Positions 1,607 to 63,076 of a stretch of 64,000 nucleotides of DNA are shown one piece after another; the first letter of the stretch is position 1; each line of letters begins with the position of its first letter. The notes below the pieces were generated by a model. That model made no database searches and was not told where the DNA came from. It was given only the letters and a program-made list of their open reading frames with translations. Origin of the DNA: a phage; NCBI GenBank assembly GCA_021469345.1, contig GCA_021469345.1_3049.1; one strand, written 5' to 3'. Made by a program: the position numbers and the translations under genes.

Positions 1607-1634
1607 AGCCCTAGCCGAAAGGTTGGGGCTTTTT
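1607..1634 (+). terminator. rho-independent terminator, near-identical copy of 1071-1099
   Basis: AGCCCTAGCC-GAAA-GGTTGGGGCT + TTTT; one mismatch versus first copy. Confidence 0.7.
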
Positions 1635-1748: not shown

Positions 1749-1844
1749 AAAAATTTTTTCACAAAACTGTTTACATCCCTGTTCTTCTATGGTACTATAC
1801 AACTATCAACTACTGATACAGAAAACAACTTGGAGAACGAAATG
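1749..1844 (+). repeat. repeated early promoter-leader cassette (copy A)
   Basis: about 60-90 bp shared with 43728-43813 and 62911-63005, partly with 16410-16500 and 19040-19110. Confidence 0.6.
1769..1800 (+). promoter_or_regulatory. T4-type early promoter
   Basis: GTTTAC at 1769-1774, 18-nt spacer, TACTAT -10, A/T-rich upstream. Confidence 0.7.
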
Positions 1845-2105
1845 GATAATTACGGCGAACTGTTCAACTTCTTTATGAAATGCGTTTCAGAAGATTTTGG
1901 TCGTACAGTGAATGATATTAAAGTTATCGGTCCTGATCATCCGATGTTTGAAACTTACGCAGTAATGGGTAATGAAGATGGTCAGTGGTATACTGTAAAG
2001 GTTGTGATTAACATGTTCACGGCAGAAGGTTATGTTAAACTGTCTTCTAAAGTTTACCATGATAACGATGAAATCGCAGAAGAATATTTCAATAATATGA
2101 AATAA
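1842..2105 (+). CDS. hypothetical protein (e.x region)
   Basis: track ORF trimmed from TTG 1830 to ATG 1842; GGAGA SD. Confidence 0.6.
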   Translation: MDNYGELFNFFMKCVSEDFGRTVNDIKVIGPDHPMFETYAVMGNEDGQWYTVKVVINMFTAEGYVKLSSKVYHDNDEIAEEYFNNMK

Positions 2106-2136
2106 AACGTTTACATGGGCTTATGATTGAGATATT

Positions 2137-2469
2137 ATGAGCCCTATTAATGAGAAGAATGTTATGAGTCTTTATACTGAACTGAATAAAAAATCTGAAG
2201 AATCTGCTGAAACTATTTTTAAAAACGTGCAAAGGCGTATTTTAGAAAAGATGTATAACGCTGCAGCTAAAGGTGAAAAATCTTGCCGGTTTCCGATTAG
2301 GTGTTCTTCAGATTTATGCGCAAATACTATTGAATGGCTGGAAAGTGAAGGTCTTACGGTAGAGAAAAACCCGGCGACTTCTATTGACGGCGAATCATAT
2401 ATTAGTATTTCTTGGGATAAACCTCGTACGAATGAAGGGTACTACAAGTTGTTGAGTTGGAAAAATTAA
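2137..2469 (+). CDS. hypothetical protein
   Basis: ORF track, ATG start. Confidence 0.5.
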   Translation: MSPINEKNVMSLYTELNKKSEESAETIFKNVQRRILEKMYNAAAKGEKSCRFPIRCSSDLCANTIEWLESEGLTVEKNPATSIDGESYISISWDKPRTNEGYYKLLSWKN

Positions 2470-2543
2470 AAATAATGATGTACAAACACCAAGGACGGTG
2501 TTATTATAGACTTATCAAAACAAATACAGAAACGGAGAAATAA

Positions 2544-2708
2544 ATGACTACTTTAATTATTTGGTTCGACGAAAATGAAGAAACATACTGCGTGAACATT
2601 GGCGAAAGCCCAATGCCAGAATTTGAATCTTCAGATAAAAACTCGGTTGTATCTTGGGCTGAAGGTTATAAAGCAGCAAAAGGTGATGTTGAAATAGTTT
2701 ACATCTAA
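2544..2708 (+). CDS. hypothetical small protein (54 aa)
   Basis: ATG 2544 with GGAGA SD; below track length cut-off. Confidence 0.4.
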   Translation: MTTLIIWFDENEETYCVNIGESPMPEFESSDKNSVVSWAEGYKAAKGDVEIVYI

Positions 2709-2726
2709 GTATGAAGGCGTTACTAT
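2697..2726 (+). promoter_or_regulatory. T4-type early promoter
   Basis: GTTTAC 2697-2702, 18-nt spacer, TACTAT. Confidence 0.45.
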
Positions 2727-2752
2727 AGACTTATCATCACAAGGAAAACATT

Positions 2753-3088
2753 ATGAAACGTAACTTTAGTAAAGCTTTTTGTAATAGAAATGATTATCCT
2801 GAAGAGCTTTTTGAATCTAAGGAATTTAAAGAGTTTAACGAACGTTCTCAAAACATGCCTGTACAGTGGGTATTGGATTATGCTAACCGTATCTTTGAAG
2901 GCGTACGTTTCGTTGGCCCCGATGATGAAGCTCCTTATTTTAAAAAGGCTTGGGAACTCGCCAATCAAGCATATATCAATGCTTTAGAATCTTCTAAAGG
3001 TACTGACGATGATTTTATTTTATTGGCTATCAATGATGCTGTTGTCGAGGCCATCGACGCCTTTATCGACGAGCTAGACGAAGAATAA
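2753..3088 (+). CDS. hypothetical acidic protein
   Basis: ORF track; AAGGAAAA SD before ATG. Confidence 0.55.
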   Translation: MKRNFSKAFCNRNDYPEELFESKEFKEFNERSQNMPVQWVLDYANRIFEGVRFVGPDDEAPYFKKAWELANQAYINALESSKGTDDDFILLAINDAVVEAIDAFIDELDEE

Positions 3089-3119
3089 GTTTACAATCTA
3101 TTAAAAACGTGATATTATC
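3089..3119 (+). promoter_or_regulatory. T4-type early promoter
   Basis: GTTTAC 3089-3094 and TATTAT near 3114. Confidence 0.45.
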
Positions 3120-3145
3120 TAATTGTATCAACCTAAGGAAATACT

Positions 3146-5532: not shown

Positions 5533-6063
<531 letters not shown>

Positions 6064-6067
6064 AGTT

Positions 6068-6097
6068 GTTTACTTTCTCCTAGAATTGTGATAGTAT
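6068..6097 (+). promoter_or_regulatory. T4-type early promoter
   Basis: GTTTAC 6068-6073, 18-nt spacer, TAGTAT. Confidence 0.5.
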
Positions 6098-6158
6098 ATT
6101 TACAGTTACTTGAAGAGACAAATTATTAATTAAAATATTTTACATTTAAAGGAAACAT

Positions 6159-6632
6159 ATGAAAACATATCAAGAATTTATTACTGAAGCAGCTATTAAT
6201 TCTCAAATTATTGCTGAATCTTTTACTGATCTTTTGAAATTTAAAAAAGGCCAAAAAATCACTGCTGTATTGGATGATGGTACAGAAGTTGAGATGGATG
6301 TACAAGGATATAATTATGCAGTAGATGGAAAACTGTATAATAAATCTCATGCTAAATTTGATTCATTTGACGACTTTGTTAATACAGTTGAAGATGAAAA
6401 AACTCGTCGATCCATTGCAACTGGTGATGCTAAGGTTCTTATGGCACATGGTCATGAACGCATTCGCGCTAAACAGAATAAAATGGGTGAAGATAATTTT
6501 GCATTAGTTGGTTATCAATCTGGTAAACAAACCTATGGTTATCAGCGTACTGCTACCATGTATAATAAAAATGGTAAAATTGCCTTTGTGAATAGTAAGG
6601 GTTCTATTCAGTACGTTAAATCGTTCAAATAA
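6159..6632 (+). CDS. internal protein (ipIII-like) with capsid targeting sequence MKTYQEFITEA
   Basis: N-terminus matches T4 internal-protein CTS including gp21-type I-x-E cleavage context; position after e. Confidence 0.65.
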   Translation: MKTYQEFITEAAINSQIIAESFTDLLKFKKGQKITAVLDDGTEVEMDVQGYNYAVDGKLYNKSHAKFDSFDDFVNTVEDEKTRRSIATGDAKVLMAHGHERIRAKQNKMGEDNFALVGYQSGKQTYGYQRTATMYNKNGKIAFVNSKGSIQYVKSFK

Positions 6633-6785
6633 GCAAATAAGAAATATGGGAACAACCTGGACCTCATGATTCTGTGAGGGATTCCCGCCAACCTGTAATA
6701 AGGTCGAGCCCAAGTGCGGTAATGGGTAAATACAGAAATGGACAATTCATGCGCCACGGAATGGCCCAAACTTAGAGAGAATAAA

Positions 6786-8780: not shown

Positions 8781-8810
8781 GTTTACTTTTCCTCTTGACT
8801 GTGGTATAAT
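8781..8810 (+). promoter_or_regulatory. T4-type early promoter
   Basis: GTTTAC 8781-8786, 18-nt spacer, TATAAT 8805-8810. Confidence 0.7.
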
Positions 8811-8837
8811 TTTTCTATCAGTTAAGAGGAGAATAAC

Positions 8838-18743: not shown

Positions 18744-19046
18744 ATGTTATACTCAAAGGCTCGTGAAATTTACGAAACTAAAATTAAAGAAGCAGTATTT
18801 CAGTTCGCAACAACAATGCGATGGACAAATGACTGTGAGTATTCAAAAAATCATAAGAAGCCCATGGTGACAAGAAAGGCTCATATGTTAGTGTTAATAG
18901 ACCGCGAGCAGATTAAAGCCCGAGAAGCCCTCCAGAATCATAAAAAGGCTGCCTTTGAATGGTTTATGGATAACACTGCTCCTGAGACTAAGAAAGCAGT
19001 AAGCGCATGGTTCAGTGGAAAAAATTGCGAAAGAAGTTTCTTTTAG
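18744..19046 (+). CDS. hypothetical protein
   Basis: trimmed to ATG 18744 with GGAGG SD. Confidence 0.5.
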   Translation: MLYSKAREIYETKIKEAVFQFATTMRWTNDCEYSKNHKKPMVTRKAHMLVLIDREQIKAREALQNHKKAAFEWFMDNTAPETKKAVSAWFSGKNCERSFF

Positions 19047-19048
19047 TG

Positions 19049-19080
19049 GTTTACAAGACTGTTCCTCTGTGGTACTATAC
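19049..19080 (+). promoter_or_regulatory. T4-type early promoter (cassette family)
   Basis: GTTTAC 19049-19054, GGTACTATACAACTATCAACTAC. Confidence 0.7.
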
Positions 19081-19106
19081 AACTATCAACTACGGAGGAA
19101 CACAAA

Positions 19107-19379
19107 ATGAACGCTAAAGATATTTTCAACCTGGTAAATTACAACGATGGTAAATTTAAATCTGAAGCACAAAGCAAGTTCTTTAATGACATCTCAATCG
19201 GAGGTGAAATCACTGTTGATGGAGGACAAATTTACAAATCCCGTTGGAATTGGATCGTTATTATCGATGAGATTGGTATTGTAGAAATTTATAAAAATAC
19301 GAAAATCGTGCATTACACTGGTCTCGTGATACTAACGAACAGTACAAAAAGGATAAAGCATCTAAATTATCTCGTGTAA
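19107..19379 (+). CDS. hypothetical protein; 3' part may be frameshifted into the next ORF
   Basis: ATG with GGAGG SD; -1 frame open from 19295 through 19630 with protein-like composition. Confidence 0.5.
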   Translation: MNAKDIFNLVNYNDGKFKSEAQSKFFNDISIGGEITVDGGQIYKSRWNWIVIIDEIGIVEIYKNTKIVHYTGLVILTNSTKRIKHLNYLV

Positions 19380-31162: not shown

Positions 31163-31428
31163 AATTAATTAATATTTCTATTGCTATTGAAAATTTTGGT
31201 ATTTTCTATGTTGACCAATACATGAAAATTTCATTTTTCCCAAATAAAACTGGTGTTGGATATTGGGAAAGCCATGTTTCTGAATTAACTGGAAGTAAAT
31301 ATTCTAATACCCATAAAAAGTTTTTAGACTTTTTATATCGCGCTGATATTAATGATCATTACATAGATATTCATGAATTTAAAAAGATGATGGAGAAAGT
31401 ATTCCAAGCATACTGTTTACTTAGATAA
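31159..31428 (+). CDS. hypothetical protein
   Basis: ORF track. Confidence 0.45.
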   Translation: MKLINISIAIENFGIFYVDQYMKISFFPNKTGVGYWESHVSELTGSKYSNTHKKFLDFLYRADINDHYIDIHEFKKMMEKVFQAYCLLR

Positions 31429-31440
31429 CTGATATCCTCT

Positions 31441-43630: not shown

Positions 43631-43643
43631 TAGAATAAATCTA

Positions 43644-43664
43644 GGGACCTCCGGGTCCCTTTTT
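43644..43664 (+). terminator. rho-independent terminator after gene 43
   Basis: GGGACC-TCCG-GGTCCC + T5. Confidence 0.75.
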
Positions 43665-43727: not shown

Positions 43728-43813
43728 AAAATTTTTTCACAAAACTGTTTACATCCCCGTTCTTCCATGGTACTATACAACTATCAACTGATACGGATTT
43801 GGAGAATGAAATG
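43728..43813 (+). repeat. repeated early promoter-leader cassette (copy B)
   Basis: about 62 bp near-identical to 1750-1811 (2 mismatches) plus similar SD-ATG leader. Confidence 0.6.
43747..43778 (+). promoter_or_regulatory. T4-type early promoter
   Basis: GTTTAC 43747-43752 and GGTACTATACAA. Confidence 0.7.
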
Positions 43814-47788: not shown

Positions 47789-49216
47789 GTGGTAGAAATT
47801 ATTCTTTCTCATCTTATATTTGATCAAGCTTATTTTTCAAAAGTTTGGCCATATATGGATTCAGAATATTTTGAAAGTGGTCCAGCTAAAAATACGTTCA
47901 AATTAATTAAATCTCATGTTAATGAGTATCATAGCGTTCCATCTATTAATGCGTTAAATGTTGCATTAGAAAATAGTTCATTTACTGAAACAGAATATTC
48001 TGGTGTAAAAACACTTATTTCAAAACTAGCTGATTCTCCGGAAGACCACAGCTGGTTAGTAAAAGAAACAGAAAAATATGTTCAGCAAAGGGCGATGTTT
48101 AATGCTACGTCTAAAATAATCGAAATTCAAACTAATGCTGAGCTTCCTCCGGAAAAACGAAATAAGAAAATGCCGGATGTTGGTGCTATTCCTGACATTA
48201 TGCGTCAAGCATTATCAATTTCATTTGATAGCTACGTTGGTCATGATTGGATGGATGACTACGAAGCACGTTGGCTATCTTATATGAATAAAGCTCGTAA
48301 GGTTCCATTTAAACTCAGAATTCTAAACAAAATTACTAAAGGCGGAGCTGAGACTGGAACGCTGAACGTTTTAATGGCTGGCGTTAACGTTGGTAAATCA
48401 TTAGGACTTTGTTCATTAGCAGCAGATTATTTGCAGCTTGGTCATAACGTTCTTTATATCTCCATGGAAATGGCAGAAGAAGTCTGTGCTAAGCGTATTG
48501 ACGCTAATATGCTTGATGTTTCTCTTGATGACATTGATGATGGACATATTTCTTACGCTGAGTATAAAGGAAAAATGGAAAAATGGCGTGAGAAATCTAC
48601 TCTCGGTCGTTTAATTGTTAAACAGTATCCTACTGGTGGAGCAGATGCTAATACATTTCGATCACTTTTAAACGAATTGAAGCTCAAAAAGAATTTTGTT
48701 CCAACAATCATTATTGTCGACTATCTAGGTATTTGTAAATCTTGCCGCATTAGAGTTTATTCAGAAAATAGTTACACAACTGTTAAAGCTATTGCAGAGG
48801 AATTGCGGGCTCTGGCTGTTGAAACCGAAACTGTTCTTTGGACTGCAGCGCAGGTTGGTAAACAAGCTTGGGATTCTTCCGATGTTAACATGAGCGATAT
48901 TGCAGAATCTGCCGGTCTTCCAGCGACAGCCGATTTTATGCTTGCGGTCATTGAAACCGAGGAGCTAGCAGCTGCTGAACAACAACTCATTAAGCAAATC
49001 AAATCACGATATGGTGATAAGAACAAATGGAATAAGTTTTTGATGGGTGTTCAAAAAGGAAATCAGAAATGGGTAGAAATTGAACAAGATTCTACTCCAA
49101 CTGGAGTGAGTGAAGTAGCAGGTTCACAACAGATTCAGGCTGAGCAGAATCGCTATCAAAGAAACGAATCGACTCGAGCTCAGTTAGATGCTTTGGCAAA
49201 TGAATTAAAATTTTAG
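47789..49216 (+). CDS. 41: replicative helicase gp41 (DnaB-like, 475 aa)
   Basis: Walker A GVNVGKS; size and position as T4; GTG start. Confidence 0.95.
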   Translation: MVEIILSHLIFDQAYFSKVWPYMDSEYFESGPAKNTFKLIKSHVNEYHSVPSINALNVALENSSFTETEYSGVKTLISKLADSPEDHSWLVKETEKYVQQRAMFNATSKIIEIQTNAELPPEKRNKKMPDVGAIPDIMRQALSISFDSYVGHDWMDDYEARWLSYMNKARKVPFKLRILNKITKGGAETGTLNVLMAGVNVGKSLGLCSLAADYLQLGHNVLYISMEMAEEVCAKRIDANMLDVSLDDIDDGHISYAEYKGKMEKWREKSTLGRLIVKQYPTGGADANTFRSLLNELKLKKNFVPTIIIVDYLGICKSCRIRVYSENSYTTVKAIAEELRALAVETETVLWTAAQVGKQAWDSSDVNMSDIAESAGLPATADFMLAVIETEELAAAEQQLIKQIKSRYGDKNKWNKFLMGVQKGNQKWVEIEQDSTPTGVSEVAGSQQIQAEQNRYQRNESTRAQLDALANELKF

Positions 49217-49245
49217 TTTACAAGCTGACGAGACTATGGTATAGT
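49216..49245 (+). promoter_or_regulatory. T4-type early promoter
   Basis: GTTTAC 49216-49221, 18-nt spacer, TATAGT; imperfect inverted repeat around -10. Confidence 0.6.
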
Positions 49246-49274
49246 AGTCTTGTTGGTTAAATGAGGAGATTTTT

Positions 49275-49457
49275 ATGGAATTGGTAAAGGTAGTTTTTAT
49301 GGGGTGGTTTAAGAATGAAAGCATGTTTACTAAAGAAATCACAATGATGAAAGATGACGTTCAATGGGCTACTACTCAATATGCTGAAGTTAATAAAGCA
49401 TTAGTTAAAGCTTTCATTGATGACAAGAAAGTATGTGAAGTGGATTGCCGAGGATAA
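49275..49457 (+). CDS. dmd: Dmd antitoxin (60 aa)
   Basis: size and position first after gene 41; sequence recalled as T4 Dmd. Confidence 0.8.
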   Translation: MELVKVVFMGWFKNESMFTKEITMMKDDVQWATTQYAEVNKALVKAFIDDKKVCEVDCRG

Positions 49458-53050: not shown

Positions 53051-53569
53051 ATGGCTCACTTTAATGAATGTGCTCATTTGATCAAAGGTGTTGATAAAGC
53101 AAATCGTGCATATGCTGAGAATATTATGCACAATATTGACCCACTGCAGGTTATGCTTGATATGCAGCGGCATTTACAGATTCGTTTGGCTAATGATAAA
53201 CCAGAAACAAATCGTCATCCCGATTCACTTGAAACTGCAGGAGAAGTTCTTGCTTGGCTGCGAAACCAAGACGATTATATCGCAGACGAAACTCGCGAGT
53301 TATATACTTCTCTTGGCGGTATGAGTAATGGCGAAAAAGAAGCTTCTGCTGTATGGAAACCTTGGAAGAAACGTTATTCTGAAATGCAATCCAAGAAAAT
53401 TCAAGATTTATCTCCTGAAGATCAGCTTGAAATTAAATTTGAACTGATTGACCAATTTCACTTTTTCATGAATAAATTTATTGCTCTTGGAATGTCAGCT
53501 GAAGAAATCTTTAAACTTTATTATCTGAAAAATGCCGAGAACTTTGCTCGTCAGGACCGAGGTTATTAA
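53051..53569 (+). CDS. 56: dCTP pyrophosphatase gp56
   Basis: trimmed from TTG 53036 to ATG 53051; size and position as T4. Confidence 0.85.
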   Translation: MAHFNECAHLIKGVDKANRAYAENIMHNIDPLQVMLDMQRHLQIRLANDKPETNRHPDSLETAGEVLAWLRNQDDYIADETRELYTSLGGMSNGEKEASAVWKPWKKRYSEMQSKKIQDLSPEDQLEIKFELIDQFHFFMNKFIALGMSAEEIFKLYYLKNAENFARQDRGY

Positions 53570-53769
53570 TGGCTCGTTTAAATAAACGCCAGCTCAAGAA
53601 AGCCCATAAGAAACGTATTGACCAGCTATTTAAAGATTATAACAAGGAGCTCGTATGTGAGCTCTTATCTAATCAGCTTCGTATGGTTGATTGGATTGTA
53701 GAAAAAGGTCCTGACGAAATTTTTGTCAGTGAAGAAGCCTTAAAATTAATTATAGAGCATTCAAAATGA
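53569..53769 (+). CDS. hypothetical basic protein
   Basis: ORF track. Confidence 0.4.
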   Translation: MARLNKRQLKKAHKKRIDQLFKDYNKELVCELLSNQLRMVDWIVEKGPDEIFVSEEALKLIIEHSK

Positions 53770-53939
53770 AAATATCCAAAGAAGAATTTATTAGACGTCA
53801 AAAAGCTTTAATTAATTTACATGAGTGGTATGCTTATCAACTTAAAGTAGATAGCTCTAACATAAATGCTGTAATGGCTTTATATAAACAAATTCAAGAT
53901 GAGCATGAATTCCTGGCACAAGTTTTCATTGAAGATTGA
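53766..53939 (+). CDS. hypothetical small protein (57 aa)
   Basis: ATG 53766 overlapping upstream stop. Confidence 0.3.
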   Translation: MKISKEEFIRRQKALINLHEWYAYQLKVDSSNINAVMALYKQIQDEHEFLAQVFIED

Positions 53940-53947
53940 TATAAATA
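53940..53947 (+). promoter_or_regulatory. T4-type late promoter core TATAAATA upstream of soc
   Basis: exact TATAAATA about 30 nt before soc ATG, then AAGGAG SD. Confidence 0.55.
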
Positions 53948-61327: not shown

Positions 61328-61358
61328 TGTTTACTTCCTCAGTTAGTTGTGGTATTAT
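61328..61358 (+). promoter_or_regulatory. T4-type early promoter
   Basis: GTTTAC near 61328 and TATTAT -10; coordinates may be off by 1. Confidence 0.55.
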
Positions 61359-61385
61359 AACACCATAGCTACTGAGGATAATAAA

Positions 61386-61886
61386 ATGAAAATTTATCGT
61401 GTTGAATCATCGTTTAGTATTCTTAATTATGAAGATGCTATAACAATACGTCGAAATCTTTGTGTTCAAATAACGCCGTACAGGAGTATAATAGATTCAT
61501 GGAGCGAAGAGTGGCTATTACACGTAGGTTATGACAGACCTAATTTTATGCATCATAGCGATAATAATAAAAGAATTCCTTTACCACACGAAGATAAACT
61601 ATTAGTTAAAAACGCTAATAAAGTAATTAATACTAAGTTCAAGAAAGATTATGTTGGAGTAGAATATCATATTCCAGGATGGTTTATAGGTCTTTATCAT
61701 TTTGCTTTCGCTAGCGAATATGATATGATGAGATGGTTCACGCGAGAAGAGCGGGAAGAATTATCTTCTAAAGGATTTTATCTCGCTGTATACGAAGTTC
61801 CTGAAGATGAAGTTATCATTGGTGGGCACCAAGTAATGTTCCGCAAATCGCATGCTGAATTAAAAGGCTTTATTACTTTAGATTAA
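61386..61886 (+). CDS. hypothetical protein
   Basis: track ORF 61347-61886 trimmed to in-frame ATG (MKIYRVESS). Confidence 0.5.
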   Translation: MKIYRVESSFSILNYEDAITIRRNLCVQITPYRSIIDSWSEEWLLHVGYDRPNFMHHSDNNKRIPLPHEDKLLVKNANKVINTKFKKDYVGVEYHIPGWFIGLYHFAFASEYDMMRWFTREEREELSSKGFYLAVYEVPEDEVIIGGHQVMFRKSHAELKGFITLD

Positions 61887-61896
61887 AGAGAAAATC

Positions 61897-62334
61897 ATGA
61901 TTAAAAATAATGCTGTTTATCAATTGAAAAAATTTGATGAAATTAAGAATTTTTCGGTACTGTCTAATACAGCTCATAATAAGTTTTGTGAACTTCTTGG
62001 TTTAACTGGCGGATATCCTTTTACTGTTATTAGTGTTAATAGCGGAATTCTTATCGATATGATGTATATTGAAATTAGAAACTATTATGGAATGGTATCA
62101 CCGCTTATTATTTATGAAAAAGATTTTAGTCTATTGACAGAAATTGAAAAACCTGAAGATCCAACTGATCTACTGTGTAAGGCAGTTTATATTCGTCGTC
62201 CATTCGCGAATCCTGTGGGTGGATGGGTGACTGATCAGTGGATTGAAGATGGTGTTGAACTTCTGAACGTAGTTCATGCTGGAGAGTACTCTGTAGTTCC
62301 TCGCAGCGCAGTGATTAATGTTCGTGTAAGCTAG
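61897..62334 (+). CDS. hypothetical protein, paralog of the 62408 ORF
   Basis: C-terminal GWVTDQWIEDGVELLNVVHAGEYSVVP matches AYITDQWVEDGVKLYNAVFLGTYKVIP. Confidence 0.5.
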   Translation: MIKNNAVYQLKKFDEIKNFSVLSNTAHNKFCELLGLTGGYPFTVISVNSGILIDMMYIEIRNYYGMVSPLIIYEKDFSLLTEIEKPEDPTDLLCKAVYIRRPFANPVGGWVTDQWIEDGVELLNVVHAGEYSVVPRSAVINVRVS

Positions 62335-62363
62335 TTTACAAACTCTTGGGACCAGAGTATAAT
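62334..62363 (+). promoter_or_regulatory. T4-type early promoter with stem-loop around -10
   Basis: GTTTAC 62334-62339, 18-nt spacer, TATAAT 62358-62363 flanked by GGGACC/GGTCCC. Confidence 0.6.
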
Positions 62364-62407
62364 GGTCCCGTGGAGTATAAAATCTTTTTAACAAGTGAGA
62401 GATAACT

Positions 62408-62905
62408 ATGATTATTAATATTGGTGAATTAGCTCGTGTATCTGATAAATCCCGTTCTAAAGCAGCAGGAAAATTGGTCGAAATTGTAAGCATTCAGCTT
62501 AAACACGGCGTTAAAGATGAAGATTCTGAAGTAAAAGTGCGTATCATTCCTAAAGATGGAAAGTCTAAACCTCAGTTTGGTTATGTTCGCGCGAAATTTC
62601 TTGAATCTGCGTTTTTGAAAGCTGTTCCCGCTAAAGGAATTGAAACGATTGATACTTCGCATGTAGGTGTAGACTTTAAGTGGAAACTCGGTCAGGCTAT
62701 TAAGTTCATTGCTCCTTATGAATTCGAATTTACCGAAGATGAGGAAGGGGTTGTTCAAAAACATCGTACTCGTGCTATGTGTGCATACATTACCGATCAA
62801 TGGGTAGAAGATGGCGTTAAGTTGTACAACGCGGTATTTTTAGGAACATACAAAGTCATTCCTGAAAGTTGGATTAAACACTATAGCAAAGCTCGCTGTG
62901 CATAA
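62408..62905 (+). CDS. hypothetical protein (165 aa)
   Basis: ORF track; paralog of the 61897 ORF. Confidence 0.5.
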   Translation: MIINIGELARVSDKSRSKAAGKLVEIVSIQLKHGVKDEDSEVKVRIIPKDGKSKPQFGYVRAKFLESAFLKAVPAKGIETIDTSHVGVDFKWKLGQAIKFIAPYEFEFTEDEEGVVQKHRTRAMCAYITDQWVEDGVKLYNAVFLGTYKVIPESWIKHYSKARCA

Positions 62906-62910
62906 AGTTT

Positions 62911-63026
62911 AAAATTTTTTCATAAAACTATATACATCAGTAGTTGATTATGGTACTATATCAATATCAACTACTGATACAGAAAACAACTTGGAGAATA
63001 AAATGGAAATTCGCCAAAGGTGCTGA
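62911..63026 (+). repeat. repeated early promoter-leader cassette (copy C) with truncated 7-codon ORF
   Basis: leader CAACTACTGATACAGAAAACAACTTGGAGAA identical to copy A; ATG at 63003 followed by stop after 7 codons; degenerate -35. Confidence 0.55.
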
Positions 63027-63076
63027 TACTCTTCTGAAACGCATCGCTCCAATGTTTAATTAATGAGGAAATTGTA

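Follow-up and report, generated by a model that had tools for sequence, protein, structure and literature searches.

Five short cassettes scattered over a 64,000-nt stretch of phage DNA, the whole of which we refer to as the window, are real copies of a strong early promoter together with its leader. Taken as a whole, the evidence is best explained by a reused subfamily of early promoters whose copies have been exchanged by recombination, some of them bearing, as a separable feature, a hairpin that would form only in read-through RNA; we put the probability of this reading at roughly 0.8. Cassettes of this kind have already been described, as T4 early promoters and as promoter early stem-loop elements (PeSLs), and to that extent the finding is correct but ordinary. 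Two parts of it may be new: a rule by which an early promoter has either a terminator upstream or a hairpin, and a conserved hairpin at the regB promoter.

The window and its relation to T4

The window is a segment of a T4-like phage (Tequatrovirus). Megablast with its first 8 kb returned 946 phage records, mostly T4-like phages of Escherichia, Shigella and Yersinia at 92-95% identity, and by local BLAST the window is collinear with T4 (NC_000866) from 71,927 to 5,657 at 92-98% identity, its plus strand being the early-gene strand of T4. For the comparison of spacers and leaders, about ten T4-like genomes were fetched from IMG/VR; an exact-pattern scan of the same resource gave 21 stretches and protein-anchored fetching about 60 loci. 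The sole Rfam match in the window is a single tRNA gene (679-751), with no match at any of its promoter cassettes. In T4, eight tRNAs, RNA C and RNA D lie just upstream of the position that corresponds to this gene.

Several other differences from T4 were seen. The nrdD intron with I-TevII, mobC and mobB are absent from the window, and the mobD and segF regions are replaced (window 26913, 28200, 32990, 14821-15367 and 53532-53940). Many indels unrelated to promoters are explained by these differences in homing-endonuclease content. A 261-bp insertion relative to T4 (31173-31434) lies between the 55.1 and 55 orthologues and starts near a GTTTAC motif at 31415.

Five copies of an early promoter and leader

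A first-pass annotation of the window had placed a recurrent promoter-leader unit at five sites, and all of its coordinates were borne out. The predicted elements, with the terminators that precede three of the copies, are as follows.

1750-1844, plus strand: copy A; UP-like A/T block 1750-1768, -35 GTTTAC 1769-1774, TGG and -10 TACTAT 1790-1798
About 1805-1841, plus strand: leader of copy A; GGAG 1832-1835, followed by the ATG (1842) of the e.8 orthologue, 87 aa
43728-43813, plus strand: copy B; -35 43747-43752, -10 43771-43776, leader CAACTGATACGGATTTGGAGAATGAA
43811, plus strand: ATG at the end of copy B, start of the imm.1 orthologue (DUF5481, 126 aa)
62911-63005, plus strand: copy C, between motB and cef; -35 ATATAC 62930-62935, -10 62954-62959, ATG 63003
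16413-16500, plus strand: copy D, orthologue of the T4 nrdC.10 promoter; -35 16432-16437, -10 16456-16461, leader unlike the others, ATG 16498 of a 49-aa ORF
19030-19109, plus strand: copy E, at nrdC.8; -35 19049-19054, -10 19073-19078, ATG 19107
1607-1630, plus strand: intrinsic terminator about 140 nt upstream of copy A
43643-43660, plus strand: intrinsic terminator after gene 43, about 85 nt upstream of copy B
16383-16402, plus strand: intrinsic terminator immediately upstream of copy D

To judge by their sequence, copies A-E very probably belong to the sigma-70 early promoters known from T4, and downstream of each come a short leader, a ribosome-binding site of GGAG type and a start codon; that they are active as promoters is predicted by orthology with T4. 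Their common plan runs from an A/T-rich, UP-like block through GTTTAC(A) as the -35 and 17 bp of spacer, closed by TGn, to TAYTAT as the -10, and TGG stands before TACTAT in all five. A -35 GTTTAC(A/T) and a -10 TAnnAT at 17-bp spacing (18 nt between GTTTAC and TAnnAT) are exact in A, B, D and E, while C has a weakened -35, ATATAC. The UP-like block AAAATTTTTTCACAAAAC, at about -40 to -60, is present in A, B and D, has two changes in C and is missing from E. Every copy ends in a Shine-Dalgarno sequence (SD) and a start codon, which in copy C is that of a decayed gene. The copies are co-oriented with the early genes downstream and occupy positions identical to those of T4 promoters; by synteny, A is assigned as the promoter of the e.8 orthologue, B of imm.1, D of nrdC.10 and E of nrdC.8, and C lies in the motB-cef spacer.

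As annotated, A and B differ at just 2 of 62 positions (1750-1811 against 43728-43789), and D and E are partial copies (16413-16509 and 19030-19126). The identity of the A and C leaders had been said to run through SD and ATG; an exact match of 31 nt, CAACTACTGATACAGAAAACAACTTGGAGAA, does extend up to the ribosome-binding site, but two mismatches precede ATGGA. The same family occupies the same loci in T4 (70,696, 27,080, 55,384, 53,943 and 6,630), a related T4 copy is annotated in X75802 as a promoter with -35 and -10 signals, and a search of phage records with copy A gave 534 matching records, at about three places per genome.

Likeness beyond the promoter consensus

A generic sigma-70 scan of the window was undiscriminating (100 matches against 83 expected), and a T4-specific anchor, GTTTAC-N18-TAnnAT, was used instead. 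Requiring GTTTAC, 18 nt and TAnnAT, then SD and ATG, on the plus strand gives 24 early promoters, which we aligned on the -35/-10 anchor, scoring each pair against column frequencies that include the cassette family itself. The top 8 of the 276 pairs all come from the five copies. A and B are the closest (z=7.5; 63 of 75 positions identical, 16 of 18 in the spacer where 7 would be expected), and A-D, A-E, A-C, B-D and B-C score z=4.3-5.1, against a median pair of z=-0.4. The first-pass annotation had allowed that the copies might turn out to be plain consensus matches; what we found is identity that extends past the -35/-10 consensus.

Another way to view the family is through its combinations of parts. 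Across about ten genomes, at least ten early genes with no relation to one another have the strict cassette in front of them, e.8, imm.1, nrdC.10, nrdC.8 and motA among them, and the invariant blocks of the cassette, TTTTCACAAAACTGTTTACA and TGGTACTATACAACTATCAAC, are combined with differing spacers and leaders into a mosaic. Copies A and B share the e.8 spacer, which A joins to the e.8 leader and B to the imm.1 leader. The nrdC.10 spacer has an imm.1-type leader in T4 and another leader in copy D of the window, and in copy C the e.8 leader is joined to a third spacer. Expressed as spacer-leader types, these are S1-L1 at e.8, S1-L2 at imm.1 in the window and hybrid-L2 at imm.1 in T4, S3-L2 at nrdC.10 in T4, S3-L5 at copy D and S6-L1 at copy C, with S4-L2 and S2-L3 found elsewhere. 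Even at one locus the spacer changes between phages: at imm.1 it is e.8-like in the window and in one relative (L079), equal to the copy A spacer in another (L081), and nrdC.8-like over its 5' half in T4 and a third (L003). From these mosaic patterns in about ten genomes, we infer that the copies are related by descent and recombination, rather than by convergence, while part of their identity is explained by strong selection on the UP, -35, TGn, -10 and +1 elements.

Gene content at the cassettes

If the cassettes serve in modular gene shuffling, as the first-pass annotation had suggested, gene content should differ between relatives exactly at the copies. This is so for three of the five, B, C and D; at A and E, no indel junction falls inside the cassette in the genomes compared. 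At copy B a gene of 78-85 aa is inserted at the cassette ATG in four phages, with ATGAAAAT at both junctions. The events at C and D leave the following features in the window.

63003-63062, plus strand: remnant of an 89-aa gene at copy C, of which the start codon and the 3' end (..KFAKGADTLLKRIAPMFN*) are left, out of frame
16498-16907, plus strand: two genes between copy D and the next promoter, P16911, of 49 aa and of 87 aa (DUF4031)

The 89-aa gene is intact in one relative (L034), whereas about 207 nt of it, between ATGGAAAA and ATGTAAAA, have been deleted from both the window and T4. The start codon of copy C now opens just seven codons, with ATGGAAA retained. Because this dead start codon travels with the promoter, copy C was inherited or copied rather than reinvented. 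The 49-aa ORF and the DUF4031 gene are found in the window and in L041 and are absent from T4, L042 and L043; in these last three the D-type promoter sits directly on nrdC.10, which in the window is driven by P16911.

Junctions inside the element occur at copies B, C and D and also at the promoters 2109, 2478, 2697, 3089, 6068, 16911 and 49719. Downstream of e.8 (2105-3127), four configurations are found among relatives, and every breakpoint lies in promoter 2109, 2478, 2697 or 3089. Over the whole window, a promoter cassette is involved in 13 of the 54 distinct indels and replacements, and the other 41 fall elsewhere. Breakpoints in cassettes make up 23 of 108 (21%), about four times the cassettes' share of the DNA (5.2% of the window). 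Early promoters, however, are found at some 24 of roughly 120 gene boundaries, or about 20% (an estimate, the boundary count being taken from T4 gene tables), and the share of breakpoints is no higher than this. The idea of modular shuffling agrees with the junctions at B, C and D and finds no further support in breakpoint frequency.

Many junctions lie outside promoters, in 7-48 bp of other homology. A 502-bp segment upstream of copy A (1104-1605), absent from T4, encodes a 93-aa ORFan (1137-1418) and perhaps another small ORF; on each side it has a 36-nt copy of an intrinsic terminator, the two being direct repeats (1068-1103 and 1604-1639) that are 97% identical and one of them the terminator listed above for copy A, and the same terminator in other phages is associated with a different insertion of 668 bp. 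This shows that terminator repeats act as recombination substrates upstream of A. Ordinary short-homology recombination fits the junctions as a whole, with promoters as one substrate beside terminator repeats and ATGAAAAT-type starts, and a privileged role for promoters is unsupported.

At the internal-protein (IP) locus (6037-6644), the conserved IP leader and first codons (MKTYQEFI..) are retained in the gene that follows promoter 6068, while the body of the gene and the segment that follows replace ipIII, ipII and denV of T4, with several variants among relatives.

Hairpins across the promoters

The first-pass annotation had also pointed to inverted repeats around the -10 of several early promoters, giving two examples. 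Both are present as reported: GGGTA/TACCC at 16921-16925 and 16941-16945, and GGGACC/GGTCCC at 62348-62353 and 62364-62369. The promoters P16911 (-17.8 kcal/mol, z=-3.7) and P62334 (-19.7 kcal/mol, z=-4.6) fold as proposed, significantly so against dinucleotide shuffles. For the cassette copies themselves the picture is divided, in that C and E have stem-loops and A, B and D have none across the -10, with an ordinary terminator upstream instead. Nine of the 24 window promoters fold at z<-3.5, a score that only 1.3% of random windows and 2.8% of translation starts lacking a promoter attain; the nine include copies C and E and the regB, motB.2, dmd and mobD.2 promoters. The predicted hairpins are these.

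62936-62978, plus strand: copy C, 13-bp stem; spacer ATCAGTAGTTGAT pairs with ATCAACTACTGAT (+1 to +13), -10 in the loop
19061-19101, plus strand: copy E, 13-bp stem; spacer TGTTCCTCTGTGG pairs with the SD-containing CTACGGAGGAACA
16911-16979, plus strand: P16911, promoter of nrdC.10; hairpin 16920-16946 (GGGTAGTAGTGT / GATACTATTACCC) encloses the -10
62334-62410, plus strand: motB promoter; hairpin 62342-62376 with a GGGACC / GGTCCC core encloses the -10 TATAAT
2109-2166, plus strand: promoter 2109; hairpin 2117-2144 across the -10; left breakpoint of four gene-content variants in relatives
8781-8840, plus strand: regB promoter; hairpin 8787-8833, spacer TTTTCCTCTTGACTG pairs with CAGTTAAGAGGAGAA (SD)
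61329-61388, plus strand: motB.2 promoter; hairpin 61336-61378 includes the SD GAGGA; -24.4 kcal/mol
13772-13832, plus strand: mobD.2-type promoter; 15-bp hairpin 13779-13814
49216-49277, plus strand: dmd promoter; hairpin 49223-49258; paralogue of the mobD.2-type promoter at 13772-13832

The hairpins of copy C (-20.2 kcal/mol, z=-6.9; identical in T4) and copy E (-20.0 kcal/mol, z=-4.75) had not been remarked in the first-pass annotation. In every case the spacer between -35 and -10 supplies the 5' arm, and the 3' arm begins at the -10 or at +1 and extends into the leader. Because the 5' arm lies in the spacer, an RNA started at the promoter itself is without it. The mobD.2 and dmd orthologue promoters differ in their stems in a compensatory manner (e.g. 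GGTTAT/GTAATC against GACTAT/GTAGTC), and T4 has the same hairpins with changes from A-U to G-U. At copy E, regB (8781) and motB.2 (61329), the SD lies in a helix that takes its 5' strand from sequence missing from the promoter's own transcript; in the folds of the window promoters C, 16911, 62334, 2109, 13772 and 49216, the SD is not in the helix.

A terminator or a hairpin

We then considered a set of 273 unique promoters from about 45 phage contigs, which contains related sequences, such that the counts drawn from it are not fully independent. Within the set 24% fold at or below -16 kcal/mol, compared with 1.4% of spacer-swapped chimeras; thresholds on minimum free energy (MFE) were used, counts of spacer-to-downstream pairs in MFE structures having failed to separate promoters from chimeras. 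Where an intrinsic terminator lies within 80 nt upstream, none of 47 promoters has a hairpin, whereas 84 of the 226 promoters with no such terminator do (Fisher, 5e-9). The contrast persists when promoters are counted by gene group (1 of 30 against 39 of 110, p=2e-4). The single mixed group is nrdC.10, for which T4 has a terminator and a plain promoter and the window has a hairpin promoter and no terminator. All five copies keep to the rule, A, B and D having a terminator only and C and E a hairpin only. Such mutual exclusion is as a function in RNA read-through predicts.

The sense strand folds better than the antisense strand in 72 of 90 cases selected symmetrically (35 of 46 groups, p=5e-4), while chimeras are unbiased, which points to RNA, not DNA, as the form of the hairpin. 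Because U-tails are absent, the hairpins are not canonical terminators; their tails are A-rich rather than U-rich, with a mean of 1.6 T in 8 nt. The SD lies inside the 3' arm in only 11 of the 40 hairpin-bearing gene groups.

Stem sequences can vary between phages at one and the same locus. The nrdC.10 promoter has stems of GGGTA/TACCC, GATAGGACTA/TAGTCCTATC, GGTATGAG/CTCATACC, GGAGCT/AGCTCC or CATCTA/TAGATG, depending on the phage. In three distant T4-like phages (L069, L072 and L073), a stem followed by a T-run encloses the -35 of the nrdC.10 promoter, e.g. GGAGTG..CACTCCTTTTTT (about 105 nt before position 10001). Read from its letters, this is a predicted intrinsic terminator fused to the promoter, and as such a third arrangement of the two functions.

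At regB, by comparison, an anti-SD in the spacer pairs with the SD in all 12 lineages, and the flanking bases covary. Over these 12 lineages, the promoters average -19.4 kcal/mol in native form and -11.4 kcal/mol as spacer-swapped chimeras. RNAalifold on a MAFFT alignment of the regB promoters recovers a 5-bp CUCC/GGAG core only, the recovery being small because the stems lie in different registers.

Alternative explanations

Independent promoters might have converged, without recombination, on one optimal sequence for maximal early transcription. T4 early promoters do have an unusually long consensus (PMC2988021), and that of the 24 promoters in the window itself covers the UP block, GTTTAC, TGn, the -10 and TATCAA. 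We nevertheless regard convergence as quite unlikely, in view of how far the likeness reaches beyond these elements: into the A/B spacer, with 16 of 18 positions shared where 7 are expected, into the 31-nt leader common to A and C while other early leaders differ freely, into the start codon and second codon of a deleted gene and, in some phages, into 'AGAATTCCCTAAAAA' upstream of the UP block. Spacer variants that are allelic at one locus, moreover, match paralogues elsewhere. Recombination could instead be of a specialised kind, with the cassettes as active mobile elements, PeSLs in the strong sense, whose stem-loop is read by a recombinase or structure-specific nuclease so that mini-circles are excised and reinserted. 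Inverse PCR has found mini-circles between PeSLs in RB49 and phi1 (PMC2839356), and several of the variants compared here have both breakpoints inside promoter cassettes. A fixed site of action is hard to reconcile with junctions that vary (leader, ATGAAAAT, ATGGAAAA, terminator repeats) and consist of 2-48 bp of ordinary homology, with stems that have no motif in common, with the lack of an embedded stem in A, B and D, and with the 41 of 54 indels that lie away from promoter cassettes; the G-U bias of the sense strand, too, speaks for RNA and not DNA. This reading we judge very unlikely.

The same bias bears on a third possibility, that the inverted repeats act in DNA, either as cruciforms modulating promoter opening or as operators of a dimeric repressor that shuts off the early promoters. 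The repeats are centred on the -10, and the mechanism of early-promoter shut-off is incompletely understood (PMC3014915). Yet the stems share no sequence that a protein could read, their position after the -10 varies between +3 and +24, the sense RNA is the strand favoured by G-U pairs, and the exclusion between hairpin and upstream terminator fits a function in RNA read-through. A role in DNA seems to us barely probable. Specifically, a repressor operator and a site-specific recombination site were both rejected, there being no shared stem motif and no constant junction.

A model for the cassettes

We therefore return to a reused promoter subfamily with a separable hairpin. The copies would have arisen, and would stay alike, through homologous recombination or gene conversion between dispersed promoters, presumably performed by the phage's own recombination machinery. 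With 20-100 bp of homology available, genes could enter, drop out or be exchanged at the leader or start codon, and a newcomer would arrive pre-wired to an early promoter. Where no terminator lies upstream, the spacer would be complementary to the first transcribed bases, and the hairpin would form only in read-through RNA from an upstream promoter, never in RNA from the cassette's own promoter. Its most likely effect would be to insulate the unit by stabilising or marking the 3' end of the upstream RNA. In about a quarter of the hairpin-bearing groups (copy E, regB and motB.2 in the window), the ribosome-binding site would in addition be hidden, leaving translation to the gene's own early transcript alone. 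That read-through-only hairpins are a general insulation device for early cistrons, with promoter-dependent translation of regB, nrdC.8 and motB.2, is a tentative proposal that we think has rather less than an even chance of being right. For regB itself, whose SD is subject to self-cleavage, the hairpin would be a further means of restricting RegB synthesis, confining it to own-promoter transcripts.

Comparison with known systems

T4 early promoters have a UP/-35/TGn/-10 architecture with further consensus regions (PMC2988021), and the cassettes agree with them in hexamers, spacing, TGn, A/T upstream block, orientation and orthologous genes (PMC2988021; PMC1524935). The T4 copies, at 70.7, 55.4, 53.9, 27.1 and 6.6 kb, are near-identical to ours. 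The differences amount to a few bases per copy, the leader of copy D and some neighbouring genes, and none of them is essential.

PeSL cassettes were described in RB49 and phi1, with stems between or across the promoter boxes (Arbiol et al. 2010, PMC2839356), and were later listed for the PST/T4 pair, with stems just upstream of the promoter (Comeau et al. 2014, PMC4122927). The resemblance proposed in the first-pass annotation holds, in that the published description, about 100 bp of A/T region, early promoter, stem-loop, SD and ATG in variable regions, matches what is found here. The cassettes are likewise repeated in variable regions, with indels or replacements adjacent and crossovers between -10 and ATG, and there is a stem-loop in the same intergenic element at every copy, embedded in C and E and as a terminator hairpin upstream of D, B and A. 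Whereas the published PST/T4 stems lie upstream of the promoter, many of those in the window span the -10 and +1, as in RB49 and phi1. Unlike PeSLs, however, the window stems have neither a G(n)/C(n) motif nor U-tails, and we see no excess of breakpoints over the gene-boundary expectation.

Repeats based on early promoters, with AT-rich stems, also flank interchangeable small genes at the IP loci of T-even phages (Repoila et al. 1994, as summarised in PMC2839356). The window has a similar case in the gene following promoter 6068, whose leader and first codons are kept and whose body is replaced relative to T4. The five copies, for their part, lie outside the IP loci and precede unrelated genes.

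For the hairpins that hide an SD, the closest precedents are T4 e, soc, 49 and I-TevI, in which a helix encloses the SD and draws its 5' strand from sequence upstream of the proximal promoter or inside it, such that only transcripts from that promoter can be translated (PMC3014915). Copy E, regB and motB.2 have this geometry as well. In the known cases, though, the promoter is late (gp55) and the hairpin delays expression, whereas the window promoters are predicted early sigma-70 promoters, and expression would be limited to the first minutes. Most of the window hairpins, moreover, exclude the SD. The SD hairpins of the window thus work, at most, like this class and are not members of it. T4 reviews, a scope that leaves aside the older T4 literature, yielded no description of the regB hairpin.

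Implications

The cassettes illustrate how small accessory genes come and go in a large lytic phage while regulation stays intact, an idea that has already been published. A gene placed behind a unit of about 100 bp is expressed at once after infection, and the repeats give recombination a foothold. If confirmed, the terminator-or-hairpin rule would explain how densely packed early genes remain independent of one another, and the hidden ribosome-binding site would account for the restriction of toxic products, the RegB nuclease among them, to the first minutes of infection.
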